Origin: Candidatus Enteromonas sp.
GTDB taxonomy: Bacteria; Bacillota_I; Bacilli_A; RFN20; CAG-826
Assembly (NCBI GenBank): GCA_034089705.1
Contig: JAXDTZ010000014.1
Span: 28,819 to 92,818 of the forward strand
Reading direction: 5' to 3'
Length of the DNA stretch: 64,000 bases
The notes under the pieces were generated by a model. That model was given only the letters and a program-made list of their open reading frames with translations. It was not told the origin of the DNA and made no database searches. A program made the position numbers and the translations under genes. Positions 33,716-63,561 of the stretch are shown here, one piece after another (within the stretch, counting starts at the first letter, position 1; each line of letters begins with the position of its first letter).

Positions 33716-33741
33716 TGGGTTTGAAAAGGAAAAGATGTCGT

Positions 33742-35661: not shown

Positions 35662-35667
35662 CCATTT

Positions 35668-37500
35668 ATGAAAAAACAAGCATTATTTCTCTTATCTCTT
35701 TCCTTTTTGCTCGCTTCTTGCGGGCTAAACGCTTCCAGTTCTTCTTCCGATTCCATCGAGGAATCGCCCGTTTCCAGCGAATCCCTCCCTTCGAGCGAAT
35801 CGGTGGATTCTTCCCTTTCAAGCGATGAGCCGTTTTACCCTTCCATCCCCGGGACTCCCGAGATGGACGATGAAGCGGAGCACGACGCGGGAGGCCTGAG
35901 CGAACTCGACGTCCGCGAGGCGCTTCTCGAAGCTTACGAATCCAAGAAGACCCTGCGTTCCAACGTGGTAAGGAGCCAAGTCTACCTTCGGGGCAACACC
36001 GAAGGGTATGGGGTGGAACTCACCGAAACCCATTACGACTTCTACGAATCCCCGACCTATGGGACCATCATGACCGGTCGGGCCGAATATCGAAAGGGAA
36101 GCGGGGTTTATTCCCCCGTGATCGACCAAGATAGCGGCTACGGGTACCACATCCAAAGCTACGTGGACGGGGGATACCTCCATTACCTCGAAAAGGCCGA
36201 CGAGGGGGTCACTAGCCGCGTCAGTTACGACAACGTTTCGAAGAACAACCGCTACAACAACCTTTACACGATTTATTCGGCGAACCGCGACCTCGCCATC
36301 ATGGAAGACGTGCTCGATGCGATCGACAAGCAATACGGTTCCGCTTCCGAAACCGCAAGGTACATCGACACGATTGGGGATTCGATCATCTTCAAAATCA
36401 CGACTCACGAATACTCGCCCTACACCTACTACAATTACGACGATTTCTTCTATGTCCACCTCGACAAAACGACGAAAAAAGTCACCCGGGTGGATAGCGG
36501 ATTCCTCGTCTACGACCTCGGCGGGGATTTGAAAAACGAAGAGGCGATCCAAGCCATGCGAATCGATTCCGTTTCCCAATTCGATTACGAGAAACGGCCC
36601 GAGTTCCAAGGGACGCTCTACAACGAAAACGACGTGGAGAAGGTCTATGGACTCGCTCCCCAGCACAAAGTGGACTACTCCTCTTGGGAAGATGGGGTCT
36701 TGAGCACCGATCGTAGCGTCGAGATTCTCCAAAACCTCCAAACCTTCGCCGAAGGCACGACTTCTTCTACGGCGACCTTCCATTACGGCGGTTTCGTCGA
36801 TCCCCAATCCCAAGCCGACGAAGACAGCGGGGAATACGCCATCTTAGGCGAAGCTAGCGGCACCGCCACGACCACCCTCTACGAAGGGGATTTCGCCGAA
36901 ATCCAAGGACAGATCTCGCTCGTCAACAAAGAGGGAACCAAGGAAATCTCGATGGTTTCCCAAACAATCGCCGACGACGAAGGGATGCGCATCGCGACGG
37001 CGTATTCGGATGTGTTAAAGAGCCATAAACACGTTTTCAAAGCCAGCGAAGTCTCCGACACCGACCCGTATTTGGGCATCTCTCCCATCTATCGTCCGGA
37101 AGTCTTCCATCCTTTTGAAATCGCCGCCGGATGCGGGCTCAATTGCGACAAGAATTCCCCGATCAACGACGACAGCAACACCTACACTTCCGCGGGGGCC
37201 TTGAGCAAATCCGGGAATGTGATCACGGGCAAACTCACCAAGGTGTACCACAAGAACGTCTGGACGCCTTATTGGACTTACAGCGCTTCCTTTACCATCG
37301 AAGATGGCTTCTTGAGTTCCATCACTTTGGACGTTTCTACCTACCGCGAAAGCGATACCGCGCATTACGAATTCGATTCTTCCTTTGCCTTCGCGATGAA
37401 AAAAGGCGAGCCGGTTCTCCCCTTCTCTGGGGACATCCTTGATGTTTCTTCGTTAAAAGAAGGATCGGTCATGGCCAAGAACGAATGGATTTACATGTAA
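35668..37500 (+). CDS. lipoprotein (610 aa), unknown function
   Basis: MKKQALFLLSLSFLLASCG lipobox followed by S/E/D-rich low-complexity linker; 6 nt after the previous gene. Confidence 0.8.
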   Translation: MKKQALFLLSLSFLLASCGLNASSSSSDSIEESPVSSESLPSSESVDSSLSSDEPFYPSIPGTPEMDDEAEHDAGGLSELDVREALLEAYESKKTLRSNVVRSQVYLRGNTEGYGVELTETHYDFYESPTYGTIMTGRAEYRKGSGVYSPVIDQDSGYGYHIQSYVDGGYLHYLEKADEGVTSRVSYDNVSKNNRYNNLYTIYSANRDLAIMEDVLDAIDKQYGSASETARYIDTIGDSIIFKITTHEYSPYTYYNYDDFFYVHLDKTTKKVTRVDSGFLVYDLGGDLKNEEAIQAMRIDSVSQFDYEKRPEFQGTLYNENDVEKVYGLAPQHKVDYSSWEDGVLSTDRSVEILQNLQTFAEGTTSSTATFHYGGFVDPQSQADEDSGEYAILGEASGTATTTLYEGDFAEIQGQISLVNKEGTKEISMVSQTIADDEGMRIATAYSDVLKSHKHVFKASEVSDTDPYLGISPIYRPEVFHPFEIAAGCGLNCDKNSPINDDSNTYTSAGALSKSGNVITGKLTKVYHKNVWTPYWTYSASFTIEDGFLSSITLDVSTYRESDTAHYEFDSSFAFAMKKGEPVLPFSGDILDVSSLKEGSVMAKNEWIYM

Positions 37501-37515
37501 ACGAGGTTTTCCGAC

Positions 37516-39042
37516 ATGAAAAAACGCATTTTGTTCCTTTCTTCTCTCCTCTCCCTCGCTTCTTGCAGCGCGGGGGGAATTTCTTCGAGCAAACCCCAAG
37601 AAAGCGGCCTTTCTACCTTCGATAGCGCCCTTTCCAGCGAATCGGCGGAAGAATCTTTGAAAGAAGAAACTTCTTCCCTTTCCGAGAAAGAGCAATTCCT
37701 TTCTTATTTGACTTCCTTGAATGAAACCCATCGCTACACCGCTCGCCTTTCCTATTCCGTCCTTTCGGAAGACGGGGAAGAGCACATGTTCCCGTATGGG
37801 ATTCAAGAGCAATACGGCGATCAGGCCCTTCTTTGGTTGGACGAAGAGAGGGCCATCAATTCCGGGGTCCTCATCAACGGGGAACAAGGGGTGTTCGATT
37901 TCTCGATCGTAAACGGCGAGTTGGTCTTAGGGAACTTCTCTTTCTTCGATGCCGGAGAGCCCATGGGAGAGCTCTACAGCACCCCCATCGACTTCGCCAA
38001 CCCCCGTTATTGGGTGGAAGACGAGGAAGGCGGATTCCACAGCAATTCCCGCCAAGTTTCTAGCGCCCTGGCTTCCTTAAGCGGCCTTCAGGACTTGGAG
38101 AACTACTATGGCGTCGAATTCAGCGCCGGGACAGCGTTCGCCTCCCTTTCCGACAACGGATTCTCCGTGCGGATGGATGCCTTGCTCGAAGGCGAAGTGG
38201 CCGCAAGAGGCTATATTGAGGTCGTGGATATCGGCGAAACGAGCAACCAAATCGTGGAGGATTATTTGAAGAATCCCCGCGTCGTTACCGCGAGAACGCA
38301 GTGGAGCGACGACGATCTGACCACCATCTCCCACTACTTTGCGGGCGATCTTCCCTTTCCCGAAGGGGCGAGCTACACCTTGTCGGTGAATTCGCTCGAC
38401 GATTACCTCGAAGTCATCATCGCCGATTGCGCTTCCGGGGACCTATCCGCCTCTTATAAAGCGCAGCTCGAAGCTCTCGGATACCACGTCGAATTTAAAT
38501 CCGAACATAGCCAATACGTCGCGGAGAAGGAAACCGTCGGGGAGAAGGAAATCGCCACCGACCTCGTGATTTTCTCCTATTTTTCCCAAAGCGAGATCGA
38601 ACAAGCCTATGGCAAAGAAACCGCGGAATTCTATCCTTATGGGCGCTTCCAAATCGAAGCCTACACCGACACCGTGGAAATCCACACCTACGAAGAAGGA
38701 ATCGCCGCGTTAGCAAAATACAGCCAATTCCCCACGCCGAGTTTTTCTGACGTGAGCCACACGGTCATCAATGACCTCACCGAATCCTTCGGGGCGTATC
38801 TGAGCGCCTACGTCACCGTTTCCTTCTATTGCGAGAACCAAACCGTCGCCACCGCCAACCTCAACGCTTACGCCGAGGTTTTGAAGGAAGCCGGTTTTAC
38901 GCTCGATGCCGATTCCACCGAAACCCACATCGCCTTGACGAGCAGCACCGGAGAAAAGGCGAAATACGTCGACCTCAACTTGGCATTGACGGAAGATAAT
39001 TCTTACCTTGGATATTTTGAGGTCACGTATATCGCGGAGTAA
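37516..39042 (+). CDS. lipoprotein (508 aa), unknown function
   Basis: MKKRILFLSSLLSLASCS lipobox, S/E-rich linker. Confidence 0.8.
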   Translation: MKKRILFLSSLLSLASCSAGGISSSKPQESGLSTFDSALSSESAEESLKEETSSLSEKEQFLSYLTSLNETHRYTARLSYSVLSEDGEEHMFPYGIQEQYGDQALLWLDEERAINSGVLINGEQGVFDFSIVNGELVLGNFSFFDAGEPMGELYSTPIDFANPRYWVEDEEGGFHSNSRQVSSALASLSGLQDLENYYGVEFSAGTAFASLSDNGFSVRMDALLEGEVAARGYIEVVDIGETSNQIVEDYLKNPRVVTARTQWSDDDLTTISHYFAGDLPFPEGASYTLSVNSLDDYLEVIIADCASGDLSASYKAQLEALGYHVEFKSEHSQYVAEKETVGEKEIATDLVIFSYFSQSEIEQAYGKETAEFYPYGRFQIEAYTDTVEIHTYEEGIAALAKYSQFPTPSFSDVSHTVINDLTESFGAYLSAYVTVSFYCENQTVATANLNAYAEVLKEAGFTLDADSTETHIALTSSTGEKAKYVDLNLALTEDNSYLGYFEVTYIAE

Positions 39043-39044
39043 CC

Positions 39045-40826
39045 ATGAAAAAGAAAACATTCGCTATTTGCAGCATTTCCTTCCTTCTTCCGCTTGCTTC
39101 TTGTGGCCCTGCCGCTAGTGAAATCTCTTCTTCCAGCAAGTCAGAGATCCCTTTTGTCATGCCCCAGGGCTTGTTTCTCCGTTTGGAGATTGGGGAAGCC
39201 AAGGCCGTGGATTTGGCCGAAACGATTCAAGGGGATTTCACCCTGGCAAGCGAATCGCCCAACATCCTTCTTTCCGGGACCAAAGTCATCGGAATGGATT
39301 ACGGACCTTTCGAGGTGAAAGTCTTGCACAACGATGAACAGCACCGGATTTCCGGAGAAGTCATCACCAAGCAATCCAAGGAAATGGAAATCTACCTTAG
39401 CGATCTGCAATCGACTTACGTCGCGTTCGATTCCTTTTCCGGGGTCACCTTAAGCGGGGACGATTATTATGCCTTCATGATCGGGCAAGACGAGAATTCG
39501 GGAGCCTATCTTTATTCCGGCGGAATCCAGGATCCTTCTTCTTCCCTCTATATTCCTTTTTATCTGGGGTCCACCCCACTCCAGGAACTCGGGGAGGAAA
39601 TGGTTTTCTCCAAGGCCAGTTATTACGCGGGCTATGAACGGAGCAAAGAGAGCCTCTCCATGGAAGGATGGACTTTGTCGTTCTATGAACTCGAGGAACA
39701 GCATGACGGGAGCGGGGATTCCACCGGGGAATTCGTCTACCTTCCCGAAGACCCTTCCCTCGTTTATTCCCTTTACCGTTCGTTGCTTGGGTCAGAAAAC
39801 CCCTTGCCCAACTTGATTTTTTCTTATGGGGGCGCTGCTGGCCTCAGCTTGAAGCTCACCCCTTCCTCCTTGCGGATTTTGCCAATAGACCAAAAGAAAA
39901 ACCCGATTTCTTCCGTTTCGGTCTCGGGGTATAGCATCCCCACCGAAATCCATCTTTGGGGGAGCGATCTCATGATTCCCGCTTTCGAGGAGTGGCGGAA
40001 CAAACCCACGATTCCCCCGCAATTCCCACGAAACGAATTGCCGGAATATTTCCAATCCCTCCAAAAGGCGGATTCCTTTACTTACACCATCGATGCGAGC
40101 TGGCAAAACCCCGAAACGGGGGCCAAGACGGCTTCCCCATCCACTTTCGTATTCTCCGACACGGGGACGACCATGTTCAGTTCCTTTGCCCTAAAAGGGG
40201 TTTATCAGGGTTCGGCATTAGAAAAAACCGTGGTGGAAATCGAAGAAAAAGCCACCTCTTTGTCGGGGCATCTCCCCAAGAAAAGGGATCGAACCTTGGA
40301 ACGCATTTCCTCTTCCGCCGTTGGGAAAAGCTTTCAGACGTGGAAGGGCGAAGAAACCGAAGAAGGGTTCCTTTACGGGAACCGGAGCTCGGTTCCTTCC
40401 CGTTATTCCGATTTCTTTTCCGCGAACATCCTCCCCGGGGCACTAGCCGCCTCTTCGTTATGGGACCAAGCCTCGATCGTGGCCAAAACAAGCGAAGAAG
40501 ACGGAACCATTCGCTTCGTTTACACCCCGAATGGGTCCGACTTCTCTTCCTATTCCTACAACTCTTTCCTCGGGGGAATCCCTTACGCCTTCCATGGCAT
40601 GGATTACGGGGATCTGAGTTTATGCGGATTGCTTTATCTCTATTATTTGGAATTCGCCTGGACGAGTTGCGCGTTTGAACTTGCGGTGAACCCCCTCTCC
40701 CAAGAGTTCTCTTTCTTAGTCGAATTCCAGTATTCTTCCGAGCTCGTTTACCGTTATTCCTTGTCCATTTTCGGCATCAATTCTTCTTCCTTATCCCCCG
40801 AAGCCCTCCAGGCGATCGAGGGGTAA
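39045..40826 (+). CDS. lipoprotein (593 aa), unknown function
   Basis: MKKKTFAICSISFLLPLASCG lipobox; 2 nt after the previous stop. Confidence 0.75.
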   Translation: MKKKTFAICSISFLLPLASCGPAASEISSSSKSEIPFVMPQGLFLRLEIGEAKAVDLAETIQGDFTLASESPNILLSGTKVIGMDYGPFEVKVLHNDEQHRISGEVITKQSKEMEIYLSDLQSTYVAFDSFSGVTLSGDDYYAFMIGQDENSGAYLYSGGIQDPSSSLYIPFYLGSTPLQELGEEMVFSKASYYAGYERSKESLSMEGWTLSFYELEEQHDGSGDSTGEFVYLPEDPSLVYSLYRSLLGSENPLPNLIFSYGGAAGLSLKLTPSSLRILPIDQKKNPISSVSVSGYSIPTEIHLWGSDLMIPAFEEWRNKPTIPPQFPRNELPEYFQSLQKADSFTYTIDASWQNPETGAKTASPSTFVFSDTGTTMFSSFALKGVYQGSALEKTVVEIEEKATSLSGHLPKKRDRTLERISSSAVGKSFQTWKGEETEEGFLYGNRSSVPSRYSDFFSANILPGALAASSLWDQASIVAKTSEEDGTIRFVYTPNGSDFSSYSYNSFLGGIPYAFHGMDYGDLSLCGLLYLYYLEFAWTSCAFELAVNPLSQEFSFLVEFQYSSELVYRYSLSIFGINSSSLSPEALQAIEG

Positions 40827-41139
40827 AAAGGCCGAAATCCAATTTGTCGACCGATACCTGAAAGCGCTTTCAAAAGTACGTGTTATTTTTTGGCGTTTAT
40901 TCTGTCAATGAAAAACGGAAATTTCTTCAATCATCCTGACGAATAACCAAAATTTATTTGAAACCGCGCATTATTCAACGTTTTTAAATTTGAAGGGAAG
41001 TTCGTCAATTCTAACTTGATAAATTAGAAAGAGCGAAAAATGTCAGTCAAAACCGTTTTTCACGCAGGTACGCGTAAAAAAACCCTTGACCGATTTCAAA
41101 CGGCTTTTATTGTAAATTTGTTACTCTCAGGAGGATTCC
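40827..41139 (+). promoter_or_regulatory. 313-bp AT-rich intergenic spacer; probable internal promoter/regulatory region for the giant lipoprotein genes
   Basis: GC far below flanks; TTGACC (41086..41091)-16 nt-TATTGT candidate; AGGAGG RBS 7 nt before ATG 41140; small palindrome GAAAGCGCTTTC near 40858. Confidence 0.4.
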
Positions 41140-44100
41140 ATGAAAAACAGAAAAACCATGTTGTTTGTCCTCTCCACGGTGGCTCTTCTCGGCCTTGCCG
41201 CCTGTGGTACTCCAAACAGCAGCCTAACCCCCTCTGAGGAAGAATCGTCGACGATTAGCTCTGACGTCGAAGAAAGCGTTGGCTCGGAATTCGTATCCGA
41301 ATCCGATTCCGAACCTCAAGTTCGAAAATACGCCATCATCGACGATGCCGGGGACCACGTCTTCCTCAAAAACCTCCCCAGCGAAGCCGCGATGGGAGAA
41401 AAGATCACTTTCTCCATTGAAGCGGCCGAACCGGGATACGCCTTCACGGGAACCGTAAAAGGCACCTTCTTCGACAAATCGGCGGAGTTCCCCATCGCGA
41501 AGAACGAAGATGGAACTTACAGCTTCAAAATGATTTCCGCCGACGTCACAATCGTCGCCGAAACCGAGCCGATGGTCGTCCGTCTCAACTACGACCTCCC
41601 CGCGAACCGGGATCTCGCGGTCGACTTCTACCAAAAGGTCGATTTGCACACCTATGCGACCGCCGAATACCGCGCGGTTGCCGGCGTTTACCAGGGCGCC
41701 TGCAAAGACGGGACCTACGATCGTTTCTTCCGCCTCACCCTTGGCTACGACCGCACGTTTGTCATCGTGCGCGCCTCTTCGGAAGCCAACTTGGAGCAAT
41801 CCCCGGAAGTCACTTTCACCGGGACATATGTTTCCGAAGACCGCGGAGATGGTAACTACATCATCACCGTTCAGTACGAAACCTGCGATTCCGGCTATTA
41901 TTCCTCGCTCACTGGGGAAATCTACGTTACCTCGAACGCGGAAGGGCGCGCGGTCACCGCGATTGACCTGATCACCTCCGCCAGCGGAAGCTACCGTTAT
42001 GGTTTCCAAACCGGAAGCGGCGCTTTCATCGAAGGAGCCAAAGAATTCGAAGAAGGGACTTATCGTTACATCAAATGCGACGGGAAGCCCCAATACGGCT
42101 ACTACCAAGACGCGCTCTACGTGAAGCCGATCGCCAACAATTATTACGAAGAATCCGTCGTCATGGTCGATGACACGGTCTGCGAGAAGAACGAGGACGG
42201 ATACTATGTGGCCTCGCTTCCCTTCCATACCGCCACGATCAAAGTCGACAAACGCGTCCGTTATTCGCCCATCGTCATCCAGAAAGACAGCGAATATGTT
42301 AATGTTCGCGCCTATACCCGCGCGGAAGCCAAGGTGGACGGGGAAGTTGTCAAAGACGAATCTGGCAACACCGTTTACGAATACACCGAGGTCACGGAAG
42401 CCAAATACCAAGACGAAATCTACTTCAAGATCGAAGTGGACGAAGTGGAAGGATTCAAATTCAACGGCATGCGCGTCCGTTACGGCAGCAAGGCCTCCGA
42501 TTTCGTTGACACCCTGACCCACGCCTCCCAATTCACTCAAAACGCGGATGGCTATTATCACGCCTCTTGGACCAAGATGACCGACATGGACTATGGCATG
42601 ATCGCCACCGTCCAAACCGCCACCGCCTGGGCCACGGGGGATGACGCCGCCTTTGTCGTCACCGGGCAATCCCGCCAATTCGGCAGCACCCTCACGAGCG
42701 AATTCTCCGTGAACGAATACGGCGAAGCGGCCTTCGGAACCAAGAAATTCTTCTTCGGGAAAGACGATTATGACCCCGCCACCGGAAAAGTGGCTTGGCA
42801 CGCCTACCAAGAATCCGTCACCTACGACGGATATTACGAAGGCGGCCTTTACGTGGTCAGCGCCGTCAATACCTCAACTTCGATCAACAACGTTTATTTC
42901 GGCGTCAAGAACCTCTATGACGAAGAAGAAGCCGCGCTTCCCATCACTTACACCGAAACCAAAACGGCGGCCGGAGATTTCGCGATTGTCGACATCGCCC
43001 AAGGCGAATCCACCAAGACCGTCGTTCTCGGCGACTTCGATCCGGAAACCGGAACCGATGATAACGGCGTTTTCCACGATGCCATCACGGTTCATGGGAA
43101 CTACGAACTTCGCGTCCTCAATGGCGCGGAGAGCTACACCACTCCGGGCGCGGTTGTCGATGTTATGGACGGCGAAACCGTCCTCGCGACGTACAAGAAT
43201 TACAACTCGGTCCTCAAACCGTTCGTCAAAGGAACCGCGGGAACCTTTACCGCGGAAGGCCTTCCGACCATCGTTACGGACGGCTTTGGCGGCGTGACCA
43301 TCACCGCCAACCCCGGATCGGAAGAAGAAACGGTTGTGAACGCCTTCTTGACCTCCAGCGAAGCCACGGAAGAAGGCAAGGAAAACCTTTCGGTCTTGGC
43401 TACCAACGCGGACGGACACGTGGTCCTCTACGCCGTGACCCTCGACGTGGAAGCAAAAACCTATGTCGCTGGGAAAACCTTCGGCACCGTCATTTCGGGC
43501 AAAAACTATCGCGGCGTTTCCATCAATAACACCACTGCAGGAGTTTCCGGAGGCAGCGTCTACCTTCTCACCATCGGGGAAGGGGACAAACTTGGCACCG
43601 CCGTCTTCTATCAAGGGTCTTCGAGCACCGCTTACAAAGACATGGCCCTTTCTTCGGATGGCTCCATCACCGTCACGACCCCGGATTCCACGAATTATAA
43701 GGTGAATTTCACCGCCGACGGATCCTCGGTCATCGCCCGTCACAGCAATCCGAATAATTCCTCCGTCATCCTCACCGACAAGATCACCGCCACCTATGCG
43801 AGCTACTTTACCTTTAATAAGGTGAACGTCGCTGGCGGCGTCTTGGTGGAATTCACCCCATCCTATTCGAGCTATGGCACGCGAACCGGGCATCCGTTCT
43901 TCGTCCGGGAACTCGGCAACAACTGGGACATCGAATTCGTTGACGTTACCTACGCCGAAGGAAGCGAACAAGCCTTCGAAAAGGAAGGCGCGCGCTTCTC
44001 CTTGACTTTGGATGGCGAAGAATACGGGCCGTATTACAATACCGGCACCGCCATCGTCGCCGACGTTTCGGGAACCTATGTCATCGACGAAACCACCAAT

Positions 44101-44706
44101 TTGGAGATTGTCGGCGATAAGGTGACCTACAACGGGATGACCAAGACCTTCACCTTCGACACGACGACCAATACCGGTTCCTTCACGAATTTGGAAACCA
44201 CCGAGGAAGGCTCTTTCTTCAAAACCTATGAATTCGTTTTGGATACGGAAGCCATGACCGCCACCATTGAAGTGGTCAGCTCCGTTGCCATGGTGATTCC
44301 GACCATCGCCGACGAAGGATCCCTCTCTGGCTATGTCTGGACGCAGCAAGAGGATGGTTCTTGGGTTTCCCCGGGCGCCTTCAAATCCAACACCGCATGG
44401 CTCAACATCACCTGCGATACTTCCGGAACCTTGACGTTCGATTATCAAATCGGTTCTGAAGCCGGTTACGATTACCTCACCATCCAAACCAAGGTTGGCG
44501 ATGGATCCTGGACGACTCTCTCGGGATATTCTACCAGCGACAAATCCAGCAATTCCGGCGTTGTTTCCGGCTCGATCACTTTGGAAGTCGAAGCTGGGAC
44601 CGTGGTCCGCGTTGGCTATTACAAAGATAGCAGCGGGGATAAAAACGGCGACACAATCGTCGTTTCCAACGTCCTCATTGCCCCTTCGGCCGTGACCGAA
44701 GAGTAA
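41140..44706 (+). CDS. giant surface lipoprotein (1,188 aa), paralog A
   Basis: lipobox LGLAACG, S/E-rich linker, N-terminal recurrent module (…DGTYSFKMISADVTIVAETEP), long beta-rich body, conserved C-terminal ~115-aa domain (…DYLTIQTKVGDGSWTTLSGYS…). Confidence 0.85.
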   Translation: MKNRKTMLFVLSTVALLGLAACGTPNSSLTPSEEESSTISSDVEESVGSEFVSESDSEPQVRKYAIIDDAGDHVFLKNLPSEAAMGEKITFSIEAAEPGYAFTGTVKGTFFDKSAEFPIAKNEDGTYSFKMISADVTIVAETEPMVVRLNYDLPANRDLAVDFYQKVDLHTYATAEYRAVAGVYQGACKDGTYDRFFRLTLGYDRTFVIVRASSEANLEQSPEVTFTGTYVSEDRGDGNYIITVQYETCDSGYYSSLTGEIYVTSNAEGRAVTAIDLITSASGSYRYGFQTGSGAFIEGAKEFEEGTYRYIKCDGKPQYGYYQDALYVKPIANNYYEESVVMVDDTVCEKNEDGYYVASLPFHTATIKVDKRVRYSPIVIQKDSEYVNVRAYTRAEAKVDGEVVKDESGNTVYEYTEVTEAKYQDEIYFKIEVDEVEGFKFNGMRVRYGSKASDFVDTLTHASQFTQNADGYYHASWTKMTDMDYGMIATVQTATAWATGDDAAFVVTGQSRQFGSTLTSEFSVNEYGEAAFGTKKFFFGKDDYDPATGKVAWHAYQESVTYDGYYEGGLYVVSAVNTSTSINNVYFGVKNLYDEEEAALPITYTETKTAAGDFAIVDIAQGESTKTVVLGDFDPETGTDDNGVFHDAITVHGNYELRVLNGAESYTTPGAVVDVMDGETVLATYKNYNSVLKPFVKGTAGTFTAEGLPTIVTDGFGGVTITANPGSEEETVVNAFLTSSEATEEGKENLSVLATNADGHVVLYAVTLDVEAKTYVAGKTFGTVISGKNYRGVSINNTTAGVSGGSVYLLTIGEGDKLGTAVFYQGSSSTAYKDMALSSDGSITVTTPDSTNYKVNFTADGSSVIARHSNPNNSSVILTDKITATYASYFTFNKVNVAGGVLVEFTPSYSSYGTRTGHPFFVRELGNNWDIEFVDVTYAEGSEQAFEKEGARFSLTLDGEEYGPYYNTGTAIVADVSGTYVIDETTNLEIVGDKVTYNGMTKTFTFDTTTNTGSFTNLETTEEGSFFKTYEFVLDTEAMTATIEVVSSVAMVIPTIADEGSLSGYVWTQQEDGSWVSPGAFKSNTAWLNITCDTSGTLTFDYQIGSEAGYDYLTIQTKVGDGSWTTLSGYSTSDKSSNSGVVSGSITLEVEAGTVVRVGYYKDSSGDKNGDTIVVSNVLIAPSAVTEE

Positions 44707-44718
44707 AGGAGAACCCCA

Positions 44719-47700
44719 ATGAAACCATCGAAATTTCTTCTTGTTTTATCGGCGCTCGGGGCGATGACTCTCGCCTCCTGCTCCGTCGGGACGGATCCGG
44801 CTCCCAGTTCTTCTGAGCCGGTTTCCTCCCTTCCTAGCGACGTTAGCTCCGAAAGTTCGGTTTCCAGCGAATCGAGCGAACCGAGCGAACCCGAGGTCGA
44901 AAAATTCGACATCGTCGACGCCGTTGGCGACCACATCTTCGTCCATGGCCCCGTCCAGGCAGCCGAAGGCGAAGCCGTTTCCTTCCGCATCGACGTCGAG
45001 ATCGGGTATTCCTTCAGCGGAGTTATCGTGGCGAAGGATTCGGAACAAAACGTCCTCGACCTCGCCTTGAACGATGGGGAATACACGTTCACGATGCCGG
45101 CCTCCGCGGTCACCATTTCCGCCGAAACCATGGCCGCTTCTTACCTCCTCTCCTACTCTACTCCGGAAGAGCTTTCCCTCTCTGCTTATGAAATCGTGAA
45201 GGAAACCGAACTCGCGACGGAGGACCGGGAAGCCGTCGCCGGCGTTTACACCGGAACCCTCCAATATTACGACTATGGTTACGCGAATTGTGGACCCCTC
45301 ACCATCACCCTCGGGTACGATGGCTCCATCCACTTTGTGGAAGCCACCAGCGCCAGCGACTCCAGCGTGAAGTATGAAGCCGAAGGCGTTTATGAAGTCG
45401 AATGCCTCGGCGACGATACCTACGTCGTTCGTTTCGACCTCAAAACCGAAACCGGGGTTGCCGTGACTGGAAAGATGAAAATCGTCTCCAAAGTCGTTCC
45501 CGAAAGCGAGGTAGAAGGCGTTAATGTCCCCGAACACCGCGAAAGGACCTACACCGCCTCTTCCACTTACTACCTTGAAGTCAGCGGCAAGAAATACAAC
45601 CAAGGCAGCATTTCCGCCACGGGCGAAGCCGCGGAACTCGATCCGGAAAAAGACGTCTACCGCAAACTCGATGCCCTTCCCCAAGTTTGGGACTATTTGG
45701 ACCACTTCTATCTGAAGTCTTCCATCACTGACGAATACGTCGCCGGCTCCCTTTCGCTGAACGGGGAAGTGCTCGAAGCCAACGAAGAGGGTTATTACCG
45801 CATCGACATGCCGCATCACGCTTCGCGGATCGAATTGACCAAAGCCACCCGTTACGCTCCGATCGTTTCGGAAACCGATTGCCCGGGGCTCGAACTCAAA
45901 TCCTACGTCAAAGTGGTGGACGAACCGGTGGAGGAAGGCGGAGAAGCCACCTACCATTACGAAGAGGTCACCCAAGCCAAATTCAACGACCAAATCTATT
46001 TCAAAGCCGTGGATAAGGCCGACAGCGAAGTCCGTTATGGCTTAATCGGCATGACGGTCACCTATGGCCCGGGTTCGAGCAATTCCGTCAACTCCGTCTA
46101 CTCCATCAAGCTGAACGCCGATGGGTATTACGAATCCACTTGGCTCAAAATGTCCAATATGGATTTCGGCATGAGCGTTTCCTTCGTCGCGAATCCGGAA
46201 CTCCCGGAAAGCGAAGAACGTTTCGCCCTCGGTGCCGCCCTCACGGGTTTCGACTCCTATTCCTCCACAAAGGATTTCGCCGTGAACGAATTCGGCAAAG
46301 TCCTCTTCAACGGTTCGGAATATTACTACTCCACCGATGACATCGCCGAAGACGGCAGCGTCACCATGCACCGCTATACCTATGACGCCAGCCACGACAT
46401 CAAAGCCTACCGTCATAACGGCACCTGGGTTTTCCTCAAAGATTTGTCCAGCAACAAGCTCTCCTACTACGCCATCGGCGAAGCGGGAATTCCCGGCGCA
46501 GAGGGGGAAGAAGACCAAAAACCGTCCTTCTCCTTCTTGATGGATGCCTCGAGCGCTTCTAACGCTTCGACCGCCTTGGTGAACGTCACCCATGCCGACG
46601 GAACCTCTTCTTACGTCCAAATCGCCGACCTCGATCCGGAAACCGGCAAGGATTCCGAAACCGGCGTCGATCACGATGCCAAAACCATCCTCTGGGACGT
46701 AGACGTCGAGATCCTCAACGGGAAAGCGAGCATCGCCGACAAGGATGCCATCTTCGACATCAAGAAGGATGGCGAGATCGTGAGCACCCACATCAATGAA
46801 GGCGGCGTCATCGCCTCCTACGAAAAAGGGCCGAGCGGCACCTTCACCCGCGGTGAAGACGTGATCGTTTCTAACGGTGCGGGCCTCGTCACCTTCAACG
46901 GAGTCAATGTCCTGAGCTCCGCTTATGGCAATAGCGACGAAGGGAAAACCATCTCCTTCCTCGCCAAAGATGGCAATGTCGTTCGCCTCTACACGGTCGT
47001 CGTGGACGAAACCGCGAACACTTTTGCCCCGGCGAGCGGCAAGTCTTATGGAACCCCGGTCACGGGCGTTCGTCGCGGCGGATATTACAGCACCAGCGCC
47101 ACCATCAACTCTTCTAGTTATACGGTGAACCTCGGCGCGACCACCGAAACGGGAGAATTCGCTGAAGAAACCGCCGATGGATGCTATGTAAAAGTCGGTT
47201 GGACCGCTTATATTGGCACCTACAAGGTCAACTCCGATGGAAAAGTCGTCGCAAGCGTCGACGCTTCCGGAAGCACTTACAACTATGTCTTCGACTTCTC
47301 GGATGACGGTGAACTCGCCTTCTTCTACAAAGATGGCGATTCCTCCAAGTTCTACCTCTACTCCACCTTGGCGACGAGTGCCATGTCCTCGTCCAACACC
47401 AAACTCCTCGTTTCGAACTTCGGTTCGAAGAAGGTCTTCGCCTTGGTGCAAAACGGTTCAACCGCCGGCATCAGCGAATCGACCAACGTCCTCGTGCAAA
47501 ACGGATCGGAATACGCGCTCGGTAAGGTAACGCTTAGCGGCGAATTCGCTTCCTGGCATACCGAAGGAGCCACCTTCACTCTCACCGTCAACGGCGCGAC
47601 GAGCGGAGAACTCTCCTATGTCGGCGGGGAAATAAAGGCCAACATCACCGGCGATTACACCGTGGAAGGACACGACAACCCCGTTCACATCGACAATACG

Positions 47701-48273
47701 GGGACGATCACCGTCGATGGAGTGGATTACGTCTTCACGATGAAGGATGATGGGACTTTGAGTTACACCATCATGGATATTCAAGAGGAAGCGGGCAAAA
47801 TCGTGTTCACGACTTACACGGTGACCTACGATGTGGAAGCGAAAACCGCGACCATTGCCCAAACGGGCGTCCGCGAAACCGGGCTCTTCATTCCTTCCGA
47901 TGCCGGAAGCGATACGAGCAAGGTTTGGACGGAATCCGAAGGCGTTTGGACCTCTCCGAGTGGATTTAGCAGCAAAGCCATCTACCTCAACGTCGAATTC
48001 TTCGGCGCGGGGACCTTCTCCTTCCACGCCAAGATTTCTTCCGAGTCCGGGTGGGATTACCTCACCATCCAGACGAAGGCGGCCGGAGCCACTTCCTTCA
48101 CCACCCTTTCTGGATACTCCTCTTCCGAAAAGAAAGCGAATTCCGGGGAAAAGGAATTGGACATCACCATCGAAGTCACCGCTGGCATGGTGGTCCAAAT
48201 CGGCTACTACAAAGATGGCAGCGGAAATTCCGGTTCCGACTGCATCGTCGTCTCCAACATGGTTCTTGCTTAA
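44719..48273 (+). CDS. giant surface lipoprotein (1,184 aa), paralog B (tandem duplicate of 41140..44706)
   Basis: lipobox MTLASCS; collinear similarity to paralog A (KFDIVDAVGDHIFV / KYAIIDDAGDHVFL; AVAGVY; RYAPIV / RYSPIV; WDYLTIQTKAAG…VVSNMVLA); AAAGGAG RBS. Confidence 0.85.
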   Translation: MKPSKFLLVLSALGAMTLASCSVGTDPAPSSSEPVSSLPSDVSSESSVSSESSEPSEPEVEKFDIVDAVGDHIFVHGPVQAAEGEAVSFRIDVEIGYSFSGVIVAKDSEQNVLDLALNDGEYTFTMPASAVTISAETMAASYLLSYSTPEELSLSAYEIVKETELATEDREAVAGVYTGTLQYYDYGYANCGPLTITLGYDGSIHFVEATSASDSSVKYEAEGVYEVECLGDDTYVVRFDLKTETGVAVTGKMKIVSKVVPESEVEGVNVPEHRERTYTASSTYYLEVSGKKYNQGSISATGEAAELDPEKDVYRKLDALPQVWDYLDHFYLKSSITDEYVAGSLSLNGEVLEANEEGYYRIDMPHHASRIELTKATRYAPIVSETDCPGLELKSYVKVVDEPVEEGGEATYHYEEVTQAKFNDQIYFKAVDKADSEVRYGLIGMTVTYGPGSSNSVNSVYSIKLNADGYYESTWLKMSNMDFGMSVSFVANPELPESEERFALGAALTGFDSYSSTKDFAVNEFGKVLFNGSEYYYSTDDIAEDGSVTMHRYTYDASHDIKAYRHNGTWVFLKDLSSNKLSYYAIGEAGIPGAEGEEDQKPSFSFLMDASSASNASTALVNVTHADGTSSYVQIADLDPETGKDSETGVDHDAKTILWDVDVEILNGKASIADKDAIFDIKKDGEIVSTHINEGGVIASYEKGPSGTFTRGEDVIVSNGAGLVTFNGVNVLSSAYGNSDEGKTISFLAKDGNVVRLYTVVVDETANTFAPASGKSYGTPVTGVRRGGYYSTSATINSSSYTVNLGATTETGEFAEETADGCYVKVGWTAYIGTYKVNSDGKVVASVDASGSTYNYVFDFSDDGELAFFYKDGDSSKFYLYSTLATSAMSSSNTKLLVSNFGSKKVFALVQNGSTAGISESTNVLVQNGSEYALGKVTLSGEFASWHTEGATFTLTVNGATSGELSYVGGEIKANITGDYTVEGHDNPVHIDNTGTITVDGVDYVFTMKDDGTLSYTIMDIQEEAGKIVFTTYTVTYDVEAKTATIAQTGVRETGLFIPSDAGSDTSKVWTESEGVWTSPSGFSSKAIYLNVEFFGAGTFSFHAKISSESGWDYLTIQTKAAGATSFTTLSGYSSSEKKANSGEKELDITIEVTAGMVVQIGYYKDGSGNSGSDCIVVSNMVLA

Positions 48274-48288
48274 TTCCCATTAAGCAGC

Positions 48289-48323
48289 AAAGCCGAGTCC
48301 TTCGAGGCTCGGCTTTTTCTTTT
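48289..48323 (+). terminator. rho-independent terminator after the giant lipoprotein pair
   Basis: AAGCCGAGUC-CUUCGA-GGCUCGGCUU 10-bp stem followed by UUUUUCUUUUCUU. Confidence 0.75.
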
Positions 48324-48451
48324 CTTCGATATTTGCTTCCTTATTTTCCATTGACGTGAATTTTTCAAAACGATATTCCATATTTCTCGCGCGCGTGTAT
48401 GATATTTTTCGTGCGCCCGTTTTGAGCGCTTGTCCATAATCGAGGTCACTT

Positions 48452-49675
48452 ATGAAACGAACTCCATTTCCTTATCTCCTTCTTGCCGGCTTATTGCTTG
48501 TTGGCTGCAACGCTTCTTCCGGGAAAGATAACAATTCCCAATCTTCCGAATCGGTTTCTTCCCTCGTTCCCAGCGTTAGCGAAGAAGAGAGCGCCTCTTC
48601 TGTAGAAGAAACTTCTTCTAATGCGGAAATCCCTAGCGTTTCTTCTTCGCAAGAAGAGAGCGCTGAGATTTCCTCCGAAGAAATCGCTTCTAGCGAAGAA
48701 GCCTCTTCGTCCATGGAAGAAAGCAGCGAAATCACCACTTTCGCCATCGCCAAGAAAACCGCCGGTTTTTCCATCGTCTTCTTGGGCGAAGGATTTGATC
48801 CAAATAAGGTCCAGCTTGGAGAAACCGTTCGTTTTACCTTGAGCGCTTTGGCGGATTATTACGAACTGAGCAAAGTCTATTACGCCACTTCGGACAACCT
48901 CAAAATCGATATCGGCCAAAATGAAGGGGTGTACTCCTTCCCCATGCCAAGCGGGAATATCACCATTCACGTGGAAAGCATCCGGAAATACGGATTAACC
49001 GTCGACTCGCCTTTCGCGACCCTCACCTTCTTGAACGAAGAGGAAACTTATTACAAAAGCGGAACGCGGATTTCCTTCTCGGTTGCCCCCATGGAAGGCT
49101 ATAGCCTCCGCAAAATCGAATACCGGTTCGACACTTCCTCTTTCGAATTGAACCCCACGGAAGAAGGGAACTACTCCTTCTCGATGCCGAGCGCCAACGC
49201 GACCATCGTCGTCACCGCGACCGAAATCATCGATGCCTCCCAAGATCCTTGGGCGGGAAAAGACGTGACTTACGGGGCTGAATTGATCCGAACTTACGAC
49301 CAAAAACTGATATGGACCCTTCATTTCAAGGGAGATGGAACGCTGGATTATCAGTCCCTCCTTTACGTAGATTATGGCGATTATGGCGATTATTACGAGG
49401 CTCCGAACGGGCAATTTGGGCCGGGAAGCATCCTTAGGGCGTGGGAATTCAACAAAATCGCGGCCGAGGAAAAAAACGCGACCTACTCGATCAACGAGGA
49501 AACCGGGTATTGCGAAGTGAGCCTTCCTACCGGTTATGCGCAGAACATGGCCACCGCGTCCTTTGAACTTTCTTCCGAACTTACCAACGGAGTCCCTTCG
49601 AAAATCACCTTGAAGAATTCCTTCTCGAACCACGATTTCGCCCCAGTCAAAGGAACGGTGTTCACCATCCAATAA
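48452..49675 (+). CDS. lipoprotein (407 aa) with two copies of the recurrent ~85-aa module
   Basis: lipobox LLLVGCN; S/E-rich linker; modules ending VYSFPMPSGNITIHVES and NYSFSMPSANATIVVTAT; own promoter-like region (TTGACG … TATGAT) at 48352..48400. Confidence 0.8.
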   Translation: MKRTPFPYLLLAGLLLVGCNASSGKDNNSQSSESVSSLVPSVSEEESASSVEETSSNAEIPSVSSSQEESAEISSEEIASSEEASSSMEESSEITTFAIAKKTAGFSIVFLGEGFDPNKVQLGETVRFTLSALADYYELSKVYYATSDNLKIDIGQNEGVYSFPMPSGNITIHVESIRKYGLTVDSPFATLTFLNEEETYYKSGTRISFSVAPMEGYSLRKIEYRFDTSSFELNPTEEGNYSFSMPSANATIVVTATEIIDASQDPWAGKDVTYGAELIRTYDQKLIWTLHFKGDGTLDYQSLLYVDYGDYGDYYEAPNGQFGPGSILRAWEFNKIAAEEKNATYSINEETGYCEVSLPTGYAQNMATASFELSSELTNGVPSKITLKNSFSNHDFAPVKGTVFTIQ

Positions 49676-49687
49676 GGAGATGCCCCC

Positions 49688-52600
49688 ATGAAAAAAACCA
49701 TTTTATTTTCTTTAGCCGCCGCTTCATTGCTCCTTCTTGCTTCTTGCGGAGGAAACAAGCCCGAAGCGCCTTCTAGCGAAGATTCTTCTTCCGAATCCAT
49801 CGTGAAAAAATACACCGTCCATTTCGACTTGAACGGAGGGGTGTTGCCAAGTGGAACGACCATCGAAGACCAACTCGTGGAAGAGGGGCATTGGGCGACC
49901 AAACCCTTGATTTCCCCGAGCAAAGCCCACAGCACCTTCTTGGGTTGGTTCACGGAGGACGGGTTCCAATGGAACTTCATGTCCCCCGTCATGGGCAACC
50001 TCAACTTGTTCGCCCATTATTCGGTGAACGAGGAATCCAAAGTCACCTTGACCTTCAACCCGAATAACGGCGAATCCTCTTACACGGTCGATACCTTCAT
50101 CGGGGATACCATTTCCACGAAGATCCCCTCCAAAGAAGGATTCGTCTTCAAAGGTTGGTATTACGGGGAAGGGAACCGCTTCACCGGTTACGTTTCCGAA
50201 GAAGTGGCCAAAGCCAAAACGTTGACGGCCCAATACGTCCAACAGGATTTCAACTACTATTTCGAGGTGAACGAAGACGACACGGTGACCATCACGGGCA
50301 TCCGCGACGTCAACTCCGTCGTCGTGTCCTTCCCGAACCAAATCAACGGGCGCGCGGTTACCCGAATCGGGAAAACCGCCCTCCAAAGTCGGATTTACGT
50401 CGAATCGGTCACCATTCCCGCCTCCGTGAAAGAGATCGAACCCCAATTTTGCAATGGGGCGAGGAGAATGGCGAGTTTCGAAGTCGAAGCCGGGAATACG
50501 GCGTACAAAGCGGAAAACGGAATTTTGTACAATGCCGATTTCACCGTGCTCGTCCGCGTGCCGGCGAAAGCCTTTTTGAGTTCTTCTTGCGTCATCCGTT
50601 CCTCGGTCAAGGAAATCGGGGCGTATGCCTTCTACGACCAAAAAGACGAAGGCATCAATAACGTCACCTTCCCCGAAACCTTAGAAACCATCGGGGAATA
50701 CGCCTTCTATGGCTGGAACAAAGCCACGAACCTCGCCTTCCCGGATTCCCTGAAAACCATCGGAAGCCACGCCTTCTGCGCGTTTGACACCGCCGAAAAG
50801 CTCACGATCAAGTGGGGAAATGGGCTAGAGGAAATCGGGGAGGCCGCCTTCTTCGGCCAATACGTCCACGACATCCTCGTCCTTCCCGAGGGATTAAAAA
50901 AAATCGGGGTCCACGCGTTCTCTTGCACGAATGGGGGCAACGCCATCACGAGCGTCGTCTTGCCTTCGAGCCTTGAAACCTTCGAAGGCGGGGTCTTCGC
51001 CAATTGCTATGGCATCGCCAAAGTCTCGATGAACGGGGAAAGCCCCGCCTACAAAGTCGAGGACAACATGCTGCTTAGCAAAGACGGCAAAAAACTCGTT
51101 TGGGTTCCTAGCGACCACAAGGGCAACATCGTCATCCCCGAGGGCGTGGAAGAAATCGGGGAATACGCCTGCGGGGAAATCCGGTACTACGATTCCCTGA
51201 CCTTCCCTTCCACCTTATCCAAAATCGCCCCTTACGCCTTCTTCTACAACGCGACCCTCACCAGCATCGAAATCCCTTCTTCGGTCAAAGAGATCGGGGA
51301 AAGCGCCTTCGACCGTTGCGAAAAGCTCGCTTCGGTCCAATTGAACGAAGGGCTCCAGCGCATCGGGCGGTACGCCTTTGCCGAGATTTCCGCTTCGAGC
51401 ATCTCCTTCCCCTCAAGTTTGAAAACGATCGGGGAGAACGCGTTCTTCGGATGCCGTTTCTCTTCCATCTCCTTCGCGGAAGGACTAGAAGAAATCCAAG
51501 ACGGGGCCTTCTATTTCCTCACCTCGAGTTACGAAGAAGATTCCTACGATTCCTATACTTCCTCTTTGGTGAATCTCTCCTTCCCCAATAGTTTGGTTTC
51601 CATCGGCGACCGCGCGTTTGCTAACCACGAAGCCCTCAAATCCATCACCTTTGGGAATGGATTGACCCACTTGGGGAGCGAAGCCTTCAGCGGGGCGAAG
51701 CCCACCCAATTGAGCGTTGCTTCGGGAGGAAACCTCGTCGTGAAAGACCTCGGGCTCTATTCGAGCGACTTCTCGACCCTCTTCTACGAATCTCCGGGAA
51801 AAACCGGCGAACTCTCCTTGCCTAGCGGCTTGAAGACGATCGCCCCCTACGCGTTAAGCAAAGTCGAAGTCACGGGAATCACCCTCCCGAATACCTTGGA
51901 AATCATCGGGGAAGGGGCGTTCTATGGCGCGTTTGACCGTAGCAGCGACATCTCTTTGACCTTCCCTTCTTCCTTGAAAGAAATCGGGGAAGGGGCGTTC
52001 TATGGCGCGAAAACCGATTCCATCGATTTCTCCACCGCCACCTCCTTAGAGACCATCGGGGCTTCCGCGTTCGAAATGAACGACGGCATTCAGGATCTCC
52101 ATTTCGCTTCCTCCTTGAAGGAAATCGGCAAAGATGCTTTCTATGCCTGCCCTACCACGAGCCTGCATTTCTCCGAAGGCCTCCTTTCGATCGGGGAATC
52201 CGCCTTCTTCGGGAACAAAAACTTGGGAGGGGAAGTCGTCCTCCCCGCCTCCTTGACTTCTTTGGGCGATTCGGTCTTCGGATCTTGGGGGAACACGACC
52301 GCTTCGGGGAACGAAATCACTTCCTTGCGGGTCGCGGAAGGATCTTCTTCCTTCTTTAGCGAGAACAACGTTGTCTACAACGCTTCGAAAACCGATGTTT
52401 ACGCGGTTGCGGGAAAGGCTAGCGGAACCATCTCCTTGCCTAGCACCGTGACGACCATCCATCCCTTCGCCTTGGCCGACGCGACTTTGGTCAGCGGCTT
52501 CTCTTTGCCCGAAGGCCTCCTCCACATTGGGGATTACGCCTTCTCCGGGGACGTGAGCGTTTCCCTCCTCACCCTTCCTTCGACCGTTTTGACCATGGGC

Positions 52601-52732
52601 GAACGCCTCTTCCATTCCTGGGGGACGAACCAAACGGTCAAAATCCCCCATAGCCTCGATTATTGCGAACGGCATTACCAATCCTATTGGAGGGATTCGA
52701 GCCGGGCGAACTTCGTATACGACGGGGAATGA
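49688..52732 (+). CDS. BspA-like leucine-rich-repeat (LRR_5) surface lipoprotein with two N-terminal Listeria-Bacteroides (Flg_new) repeats
   Basis: lipobox LLLASCG; YTVHFDLNGG…GWF…W.F and TLTFNPNNG…GWYY repeats; >20 tandem ~23-aa IG.YAF…SL repeats. Confidence 0.85.
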   Translation: MKKTILFSLAAASLLLLASCGGNKPEAPSSEDSSSESIVKKYTVHFDLNGGVLPSGTTIEDQLVEEGHWATKPLISPSKAHSTFLGWFTEDGFQWNFMSPVMGNLNLFAHYSVNEESKVTLTFNPNNGESSYTVDTFIGDTISTKIPSKEGFVFKGWYYGEGNRFTGYVSEEVAKAKTLTAQYVQQDFNYYFEVNEDDTVTITGIRDVNSVVVSFPNQINGRAVTRIGKTALQSRIYVESVTIPASVKEIEPQFCNGARRMASFEVEAGNTAYKAENGILYNADFTVLVRVPAKAFLSSSCVIRSSVKEIGAYAFYDQKDEGINNVTFPETLETIGEYAFYGWNKATNLAFPDSLKTIGSHAFCAFDTAEKLTIKWGNGLEEIGEAAFFGQYVHDILVLPEGLKKIGVHAFSCTNGGNAITSVVLPSSLETFEGGVFANCYGIAKVSMNGESPAYKVEDNMLLSKDGKKLVWVPSDHKGNIVIPEGVEEIGEYACGEIRYYDSLTFPSTLSKIAPYAFFYNATLTSIEIPSSVKEIGESAFDRCEKLASVQLNEGLQRIGRYAFAEISASSISFPSSLKTIGENAFFGCRFSSISFAEGLEEIQDGAFYFLTSSYEEDSYDSYTSSLVNLSFPNSLVSIGDRAFANHEALKSITFGNGLTHLGSEAFSGAKPTQLSVASGGNLVVKDLGLYSSDFSTLFYESPGKTGELSLPSGLKTIAPYALSKVEVTGITLPNTLEIIGEGAFYGAFDRSSDISLTFPSSLKEIGEGAFYGAKTDSIDFSTATSLETIGASAFEMNDGIQDLHFASSLKEIGKDAFYACPTTSLHFSEGLLSIGESAFFGNKNLGGEVVLPASLTSLGDSVFGSWGNTTASGNEITSLRVAEGSSSFFSENNVVYNASKTDVYAVAGKASGTISLPSTVTTIHPFALADATLVSGFSLPEGLLHIGDYAFSGDVSVSLLTLPSTVLTMGERLFHSWGTNQTVKIPHSLDYCERHYQSYWRDSSRANFVYDGE

Positions 52733-52734
52733 TT

Positions 52735-60673: not shown

Positions 60674-60705
60674 AGCACAAGAAAAATCCAACGATAAAAG
60701 TATAC

Positions 60706-61862: not shown

Positions 61863-62792
61863 CTAGTTGCTTAAGCGATATGTACCAAATTTGAAAACTT
61901 TATCTTCCACATTCGTTTGGCTTTCGCCATGATGGTACAGTCCATCGATGACTATTGCCCCATCCGTTAATTCAAAATTGCCTCGTAGATAAAAAACTGG
62001 CGGGTAATCGCTAGAAAACGTCATATCGTATTTGTCGCGGTCTTCGCGCCTTATGTGCTCATAGGGGTCATGGTCAATATAAAGATATATTGTCTTTTTA
62101 TCAGCGGAAGTCCAGTAGACTCCTTCCACCACTTCATCTCCGTTTTTATATTGAAATAAAGCGTGAATATAGGGTTTCGGTATGACGCATGTCATAGATA
62201 CATTTTCATCTAATGAATATGTTCCTTCCGGGATCTGATATTGTTTTGCGTATTTGTAATTATCTTGATCCCGTTTATGTTCTTTGCCTTCTAGAACATA
62301 GGTTCCCAGTTTATAGGGGAGCTCGCTGATTCTATATACATGCGTATAGATTCTCCCATCATTCATGCCTTCGTATCTTTCTTCTTTGATGGTCGTAAAT
62401 TGGGTGAAATCGGTCTCGAAATCATCTACATAGGTATAAAGCCAGTCTTTCTTTTCCGCGCCGTCTCTAGATAAAACAAAATTGACCGTAAAAGTATTTG
62501 CGCCATCATTTGGGTCATAAACGACTCGATAATGGCCTTCATATTTATCTTGACCATCTTCCACATATTTAAATGACATGGCGTCTTTGCTTCCGTCAAA
62601 TTCAAAGAAAGTATCCGATTGATCTTTCAATATCCATTTGCCGGTTGATGAATCAAGCTCTTCATCGTATTCGATGGTGCTATCGCTTTGATTTGCAGTT
62701 CCGTTAAATAAGCCGCATGCGGTTAATGAAAAGCTAGTCAAAAGGCAAAAAGCAGAAGAGAGAATAGTTACTACCTTATTACGCACAATCAA
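61863..62792 (-). CDS. lipoprotein (309 aa) encoded in a low-GC segment
   Basis: signal peptide with lipobox SLTACG; AT-rich codon usage unlike the rest of the window; no linker or module shared with the main lipoprotein array. Confidence 0.7.
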   Translation of the reverse strand: MIVRNKVVTILSSAFCLLTSFSLTACGLFNGTANQSDSTIEYDEELDSSTGKWILKDQSDTFFEFDGSKDAMSFKYVEDGQDKYEGHYRVVYDPNDGANTFTVNFVLSRDGAEKKDWLYTYVDDFETDFTQFTTIKEERYEGMNDGRIYTHVYRISELPYKLGTYVLEGKEHKRDQDNYKYAKQYQIPEGTYSLDENVSMTCVIPKPYIHALFQYKNGDEVVEGVYWTSADKKTIYLYIDHDPYEHIRREDRDKYDMTFSSDYPPVFYLRGNFELTDGAIVIDGLYHHGESQTNVEDKVFKFGTYRLSN

Positions 62793-63520: not shown

Positions 63521-63561
63521 TATTTACAACCTCCCGATAGCCATTTTATTTACCCAGTGTT

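Follow-up and report, generated by a model that had tools for sequence, protein, structure and literature searches.

Tandem paralogous lipoproteins with a conserved C-terminal jelly-roll domain in Candidatus Enteromonas, a predicted wall-less gut bacterium

The third domain of the secreted Vibrio cholerae protease VesC (PDB 6BQM, "VesC-CBM") has been described as a concave β-sandwich nearest to MAM, reelin, and CBM29 (PMC7771236). Together with the eukaryotic MAM domains (RPTP mu/kappa, meprin, neuropilin) and CUB, it is the closest known counterpart of the C-terminal domain of two adjacent genes, termed A and B here, which we analyzed within 64,000 nucleotides of Candidatus Enteromonas sp. 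DNA (the window). Whereas the VesC domain is part of a secreted protease, the domain of A and B ends a lipoprotein and bears an invariant E...D...KD...D motif, which VesC lacks. The N-terminal module of A and B aligns to PF18998, the InlB B-repeat (Flg_new_2) family of Firmicutes and Bacteroidetes proteins. The co-occurrence with Flg_new and BspA-type LRR domains, typical of InlB B-repeat proteins, is also found among the relatives of A and B. However, A and B carry one clear copy and two degenerate B-repeat-like domains, and they are anchored by lipid instead of LPXTG, GW, or T9SS. Unlike SusE/SusF and the surface glycan-binding proteins of Bacteroides, A and B lack the context of a polysaccharide utilization locus (no SusC/D, no hydrolases), reside in a monoderm host predicted to be wall-less, and are three times longer; scans of Pfam and of representative proteins revealed no sequence homology to SusE/SusF. 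The variable lipoproteins of Mycoplasma and Ureaplasma (Vlp, Vsa, Vsp, MBA) are likewise encoded by clustered paralogous genes in wall-less Mycoplasmatales-related Bacilli (PMC10868615) and share a Ser/Glu-rich tether following the lipobox. A and B differ from them by the absence of tandem coding repeats, homopolymeric switches, and invertase sites and by purifying selection, and a scan of 1.84 billion representative proteins found no homology between them.

Candidatus Enteromonas corresponds to the GTDB genus UBA733 of the order RFN20 and family CAG-826, and one described species of the genus has a 1.2-Mb genome with 57% GC (PMC8035907). Peptidoglycan deficiency is predicted for the family CAG-826, and srtA/B sortases are missing from the order RFN20 (PMC10868615). 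Because of the predicted absence of both peptidoglycan and sortases, lipid anchoring is the expected route of surface display in this host.

We read A and B as co-transcribed, lipid-anchored surface proteins that probably bind a ligand, originated from an old tandem duplication, and are both maintained by purifying selection, a reading to which we assign a probability of roughly 60%. The two genes (Table 1) align collinearly over their full lengths by BLASTP (31% identity, E=1e-118), as anticipated by an earlier note made from the letters of this DNA, and every motif quoted in that note is found in the two translations. We derived regional identities from an alignment of seven sequences comprising A, B, the orthologs of each, and a single-copy clade. 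Divergence between A and B is not uniform: the C-terminal domain with 66 of 123 identical residues (54%) is clearly better kept than the core with 239 of 852 (28%; Fisher test, p=3.7e-8), in agreement with the earlier note. The N-terminal module, also presumed to be conserved, exceeds the core background marginally (33/79, 42%; p=0.014), and its conservation is only slight. Likewise, the middle region considered to be heavily diverged is so in relative terms, as the core remains alignable from end to end and residues 346-462 of A comprise blocks near 40% identity. A second strain (contig L004) and a second species (locus L001) each carry the two genes intact, and neither gene is a pseudogene.

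Table 1. Features of genes A and B and their transcription unit, with positions in the window.
Feature	Position	Strand	Basis or remark
Perfect 14-bp palindrome TGAAAGCGCTTTCA	40859..40872	none	Exact match to the Firmicute cre (CcpA/LacI-type operator) consensus
Sigma-70-like promoter, TTGACC, 16-nt spacer, TATTGT	41086..41113	+	Consensus scan
Ribosome-binding site AGGAGG, 5 nt ahead of the gene A ATG	41129..41134	+	Sequence reading
Gene A, 1188-residue lipoprotein precursor	41140..44706	+	Open reading frame and BLASTP
A, signal peptide and lipobox (LAAC, Cys22)	41140..41205	+	Sequence reading; Cys invariant in alignment
A, Ser/Glu-rich low-complexity tether, residues 23-60	41206..41319	+	Sequence; AlphaFold2 predicted local distance difference test (pLDDT) <35
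A, N-terminal module, divergent InlB B-repeat (Flg_new_2-like) Ig-like domain, residues 61-143	41320..41568	+	
A, all-β core, residues 144-1057	41569..44310	+	No known family matched
A, C-terminal MAM/CUB/CBM-like jelly-roll domain, residues 1058-1181	44311..44682	+	
Intercistronic spacer AGGAGAACCCCA, 12 nt, with the ribosome-binding site of gene B	44707..44718	+	
Gene B, 1184-residue lipoprotein precursor; lipobox LASC (Cys21), B-repeat at residues 60-140	44719..48273	+	
B, C-terminal jelly roll, residues about 1062-1184	47902-48270	+	
Intrinsic terminator, 11-bp stem (6 GC pairs), 6-nt loop, T-rich tail	48289..48326	+	

Both precursors open with a basic n-region (MKNRK in A, MKPSK in B) and a hydrophobic h-region (TMLFVLSTVALLG and FLLVLSALGAMT, respectively), leading to the lipoboxes LAAC(22) and LASC(21), which follow the pattern [LVI][ASTVI][GAS]C. 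The lipobox cysteine is invariant in 7/7 aligned homologs, in agreement with the previous assignment of A and B as lipoproteins. No lgt or lsp gene was found among the open reading frames of the window scanned against Pfam. A Ser/Glu-rich low-complexity stretch follows the lipobox in both proteins. Scanned alone against PF18998 (gathering score 23.6), the subsequent module reached 26.0 bits in the ortholog P0004 and 19.5 bits (E=1e-3) in B, and A itself had no match at threshold; the modules of A and B are thus probably Flg_new_2 domains by homology to P0004, not through their own scores. The N-terminal module also resembles weakly the Flg_new_2-bearing neighbors at 33721..35661 and 48452..49675. 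About 110 of the 150 profile-search matches listed are best on this module, usually with 3-23 matched stretches per protein.

The C-terminal domain superposes on solved members of the jelly-roll β-sandwiches. The question raised previously, whether it is jelly-roll or lectin-like, can be answered by the predicted fold, which is jelly-roll/lectin-like. In the fold comparison, the third domain of VesC scored 11.8, Elapor1 10.9, the MAM domains of RPTP kappa/mu 9.5-9.7, binding modules of chondroitinase and hyaluronate lyase 9.0-9.1, the MAM-like domain of InhA 8.5, C1s CUB1 8.4, and the Gingipain K1 adhesin 8.2, with many CBMs at 7.5-8.7. At the sequence level, VesC 378-484 is likewise recognized by the profile of the C-terminal family (E=4.7e-5). 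The family is not represented by any model in Pfam or NCBIfam, and MAM and CUB matches fall below threshold with one exception: InhA-like_MAM scores are 15.8 and 13.9 bits, below the cut-off of 26.9, and Pfam yielded a weak MAM match in 3/37 and a CUB match in 1/37 family members. In P0074, Pfam matches CUB (32.9 bits) across a stretch that overlaps one copy of the domain.

An alignment of 37 instances of the C-terminal domain shows invariant E, D, K-D, and D residues (SSE-x3-D...KD...D), corresponding to E1107, D1111, K1162, D1163, and D1171 in A. Their spacing differs from that of the calcium-binding CUB domains (cbCUB). We conjecture that this acidic motif might constitute a metal-assisted, possibly Ca2+-dependent, site for a glycan or a host or partner ligand. 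Using a local hidden Markov model of the last ~125 residues, we detected the domain in many other listed proteins, each with 1-7 copies; Flg_new or BspA-type LRR_5 domains are also present in several of them. P0043 and P0074 contain seven jelly-roll copies each. In the distant relatives P0029, P0032, P0041, and P0054, a unit consisting of a pre-jelly-roll domain with a "GTY...DG.G" motif and the C-terminal jelly roll occurs twice.

Between the two ends, the core of A includes two B-repeat-like domains (residues ~305-497), both degenerate, and small meander β-barrels in a predicted structure of medium confidence (mean pLDDT 60). Pfam and NCBIfam, applied to the full-length proteins and nine sub-segments, assigned no family to the core even at permissive thresholds; a search of PDB sequences with the full-length profile gave a chance match only, and Foldseek comparison of the full-length model with the PDB gave only matches of low TM score. 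BLAST self-comparison detected no internal repeats, and weak similarity at the profile level connects the domains D1, D3, and D4. Among the invariant residues of the core, G, Y, D, N, and T predominate, as is typical of β-turn and structural positions.

The 313-bp spacer upstream of A has a GC content of 35.8%, compared with 55% in the genes. The -35 block CTTGACCGATTT and the TATT of the -10 element are kept in the species of L001, at 70% identity, where most of the other spacer sequence is not, and the AGGAGG ahead of A is invariant in a three-way alignment. The terminator, whose 11-bp stem and T-run are placed at 48289-48316, begins 16 nt past the stop codon of B. A promoter-like site, the short gap carrying a ribosome-binding site, and a terminator together indicate that A and B form a bicistronic operon, and the separately regulated unit proposed by the earlier note from the AT-rich spacer and the strong terminator is borne out. 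The palindrome TGAAAGCGCTTTCA is the sole perfect match to TGWAANCGNTNWCA within the window. It is found at the same position in L001, L002, L004, and L005 and is conserved at every locus with the pair, whereas the loci of the single-copy relatives (L003, L006, and L007) do not have it. The cre-like palindrome, located ~215 nt upstream of the predicted -35 element, is a candidate regulatory site of the A-B unit; it hints at CcpA/LacI-type catabolite control, which would fit a carbohydrate-related ligand. As for a riboswitch or another known RNA in the leader, Rfam gave no gathering-score match anywhere in the window, and we rejected this possibility.

Relatives were collected by a word-indexed search of 5.8 billion proteins and an exhaustive HMMER profile scan of 1.84 billion representatives, using a profile built without the signal peptide and linker. 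The word-indexed search returned five proteins related to A and two related to B. P0001, 98% identical to A, comes from an NCBI metagenome-assembled genome named Candidatus Enteromonas sp., in which both genes are intact (L004). The second species (L001) encodes P0002 (A2), the ortholog of A with 71% identity (70% by BLASTP), adjoined by P0006 (B2), the ortholog of B with 64% identity. L001 is syntenic over the whole block, which consists of an ABC ATPase, two ABC2_membrane_6 permeases, four lipoprotein genes, A2, B2, and three further lipoprotein genes. P0003-P0005 constitute a single-copy clade with ~32% identity to both A and B, and one GTDB species representative, Ca. Enteromonas sp. SUG2460 (L005), has a relative. 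The HMMER scan gave 1277 matches at E<=1e-3; the whole-length matches, among the matches listed, fall into about six clusters at 50% identity (P0002, P0005, P0006, P0008, P0009, and partly P0010). P0009 is a single copy in an unrelated context, and outside the pair-bearing clade the gene is single-copy wherever the context was read.

In a neighbor-joining tree, (A,A2) and (B,B2) are sisters with 90.5% bootstrap support, the single-copy clade lies outside, and P0008 and P0009 are outgroups. This topology indicates one duplication in the ancestor of the two pair-bearing Enteromonas species, placed by the tree presumably shortly after the split from the single-copy lineage. The single-copy homolog at 10001-13630 of L003 (1209 residues) occupies the same slot of the island, inverted relative to all flanking lipoprotein genes. 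It has ~800 bp of non-coding DNA upstream, and the ABC-2 transporter is not adjacent. A functional link between the pair and the upstream ABC-2 transporter was dismissed, as the adjacency is not conserved in L003.

The low identity of the A and B cores (28%, against 54% in the C-terminal domains), lipoproteins in a predicted wall-less relative of the Mollicutes (PMC10868615), and the very narrow taxonomic distribution and fast evolution of the family would all suit surface antigens, whose middles diversify or which undergo antigenic or phase variation like the variable lipoproteins of Mycoplasma. The earlier note favored diversifying selection on the variable middles and suggested examining the ratio of nonsynonymous to synonymous substitution rates (dN/dS) along the genes as well as variation among strains. 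Neither comparison supports it. Between the window and L004, at nucleotide identities of 98.3% (A) and 97.5% (B), dN/dS is 0.17 for A and 0.21 for B, similar to the 0.13-0.45 of four neighboring genes, of which the two full-length ones have 0.13 and 0.23 and a 489-nt fragment of the upstream gene has 0.45. The proteins are 98% (A) and 97% (B) identical between the strains with both copies intact, and the differences are conservative and scattered. Between species, dN/dS is 0.22 for A/A2 and 0.23 for B/B2 overall and 0.12-0.38 in all computable 100-column windows, none of which approaches 1; these values are approximate because dS of ~1.1-1.4 is near saturation, and one B/B2 window was too saturated to compute. 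The ortholog cores are 70% (A/A2) and 67% (B/B2) identical and thus no less conserved than the ends. Low dN/dS and conserved ortholog cores imply that the divergence between the cores of A and B is an old post-duplication divergence followed by purifying selection.

The locus also lacks devices for variation. We found no homopolymers of at least 8 nt and no simple sequence repeats in 40827-48451 and no inverted repeats flanking the promoter, and the longest stretch repeated between the nucleotide sequences of A and B measures 62 nt, at 76% identity; slipped-strand, invertible-promoter, and cassette variation were consequently rejected. Gene conversion as the source of the C-terminal similarity was rejected as well: synonymous divergence between A and B is at saturation in the C-terminal domain (dS of 1.6), as it is elsewhere, and the C-terminal identities of A-B, A-B2, A2-B, and A2-B2 are all 47-53%, so that the similarity reflects constraint and not recent conversion. 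Ongoing diversifying selection or programmed variation of A and B is not supported, and an antigenic role as described above is very improbable. In the B lineage, the C-terminal domain has changed more between orthologs than the core has (55% vs. 67% identity); the A lineage shows the opposite (79% vs. 70%).

The possibility we take most seriously besides our own reading, although we consider it unlikely, is that A and B are SusE/SusF-like glycan-binding lipoproteins, which hold a polysaccharide at the surface for uptake under carbon catabolite control. The architecture is the same, namely tandem lipoprotein paralogs with an Ig-like domain at the N-terminus and a CBM-like β-sandwich at the distal end, and the perfect and conserved cre-type palindrome as well as an α-amylase/CBM48 gene elsewhere in the window point in this direction. 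However, the region 30956-53880 contains no glycoside hydrolase, sugar importer, or SusC/D-type partner, and the sole nearby transporter is of the ABC-2 (exporter) type and unlinked in L003. The distance between the cre-like site and the predicted promoter would be unusual for repression, and the jelly roll is nearer to MAM and VesC than to any characterized CBM. Alternatively, the ~900 residues without family assignment might conceal a glycosidase, protease, or lyase, with the jelly roll as its targeting module as in VesC and InhA; the closest solved relatives, including VesC, InhA, and many glycoside hydrolases, indeed bear a jelly roll beside a catalytic domain. We regard such an enzyme as improbable, since nothing in Pfam, NCBIfam, or PDB sequences matches the core even at permissive thresholds and its invariant residues are mostly structural. 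Less probable still is a structural coat, in which A and B, possibly as heteromers, form a protective layer replacing the missing wall. Very long all-β proteins that are co-transcribed, and would be present at about 1:1, in a family predicted to be wall-less (PMC10868615), and the strict retention of both copies could be accommodated by a coat, but the more distant relatives with known context have a single copy, and Pfam and NCBIfam scans detected neither a self-assembly motif nor S-layer homology.

On our preferred reading as ligand-binding surface proteins, A and B would be transcribed together, and their products would be exported and receive a lipid at Cys22 and Cys21, respectively. From the lipobox cysteine outwards, the order of domains would be the disordered Ser/Glu tether, the InlB-type B-repeat, ~900 residues of β domains, and the membrane-distal jelly roll; tether and β-domain chain would hold the proteins off the membrane, and the distal jelly roll would present its invariant acidic residues as a possibly Ca2+-dependent binding site. 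The tandem duplication would have occurred in the ancestor shared by the two Enteromonas species, with an early divergence of the cores (28%). The ancient core divergence and the strict retention of both genes argue for non-redundant roles, which might be two binding specificities or a two-component surface structure. On this reading, A and B most likely bind an outside ligand.

Several points weigh against this reading. Jelly rolls of the MAM/CUB/CBM-like type also mediate protein-protein contacts or are purely structural, VesC does not keep the acidic motif, and the ~900-residue core without recognizable family, modeled at a mean pLDDT of 60, may hide an unrecognized activity. In addition, Candidatus Enteromonas is uncultured.

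A bolder and rather doubtful extension of our reading is that A and B represent an undescribed family of very long surface lipoproteins, most of whose length shows no known domain, that replaces sortase-anchored adhesins in RFN20/CAG-826. The C-terminal module would then be a new widespread MAM/CUB-like domain family with a putative metal site, present in 1-7 copies in Enteromonas-type lipoproteins and a Kiritimatiellia-named protein, and the pair could be a heteromeric adhesin with two specificities under catabolite control.

Genes A and B belong to a plus-strand island (30956-53880), which starts with an ABC ATPase and two ABC2_membrane_6 permeases and continues with nine consecutive lipobox-bearing open reading frames (33721..53880) of 646, 610, 508, 593, 1188, 1184, 407, 1014, and 405 residues. 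Most of the nine have no family match; the 1014-residue protein (49688..52732) combines BspA-type LRR_5 and Flg_new. The entire lipoprotein island is syntenic in L001. The remaining window is ordinary chromosome encoding FtsK, RNase J, PNPase, RibF, TruB, IF-2, NusA, and BipA, and no tRNA was found in the window. Adjoining the island on the minus strand is a cyclic di-GMP signaling protein with REC, HD_5/HD-GYP-like, and GGDEF domains (54412-56808), and another with GGDEF, EAL, and PAS domains follows at 57833-60691 (-); this makes two such proteins in the very small genome of a predicted wall-less bacterium. The open reading frame 61863..62792 (-) has no Pfam match. At 62001-64000, the GC content drops to 37%, compared with the window mean of 53%.

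A and B are an unannotated member of the familiar modular surface lipoproteins and adhesins of predicted wall-less bacteria, and otherwise a case of ordinary old tandem duplication and divergence under purifying selection, not an antigenic-variation system. They provide a concrete case, open to checking, of how proteins may be displayed on the surface of an uncultured gut bacterium in which wall and sortases are both predicted to be missing. Domains of the wall type, namely the InlB B-repeat, BspA-LRR, and MAM/CBM-like jelly rolls, are grafted onto lipoprotein signals in an island of 20 kb; set against the genome of ~1.2 Mb described for one species of the genus, the island makes up ~2%. Curation and binding studies would be worthwhile for the jelly-roll family, which is uncurated and widespread and has a strictly conserved acidic motif.

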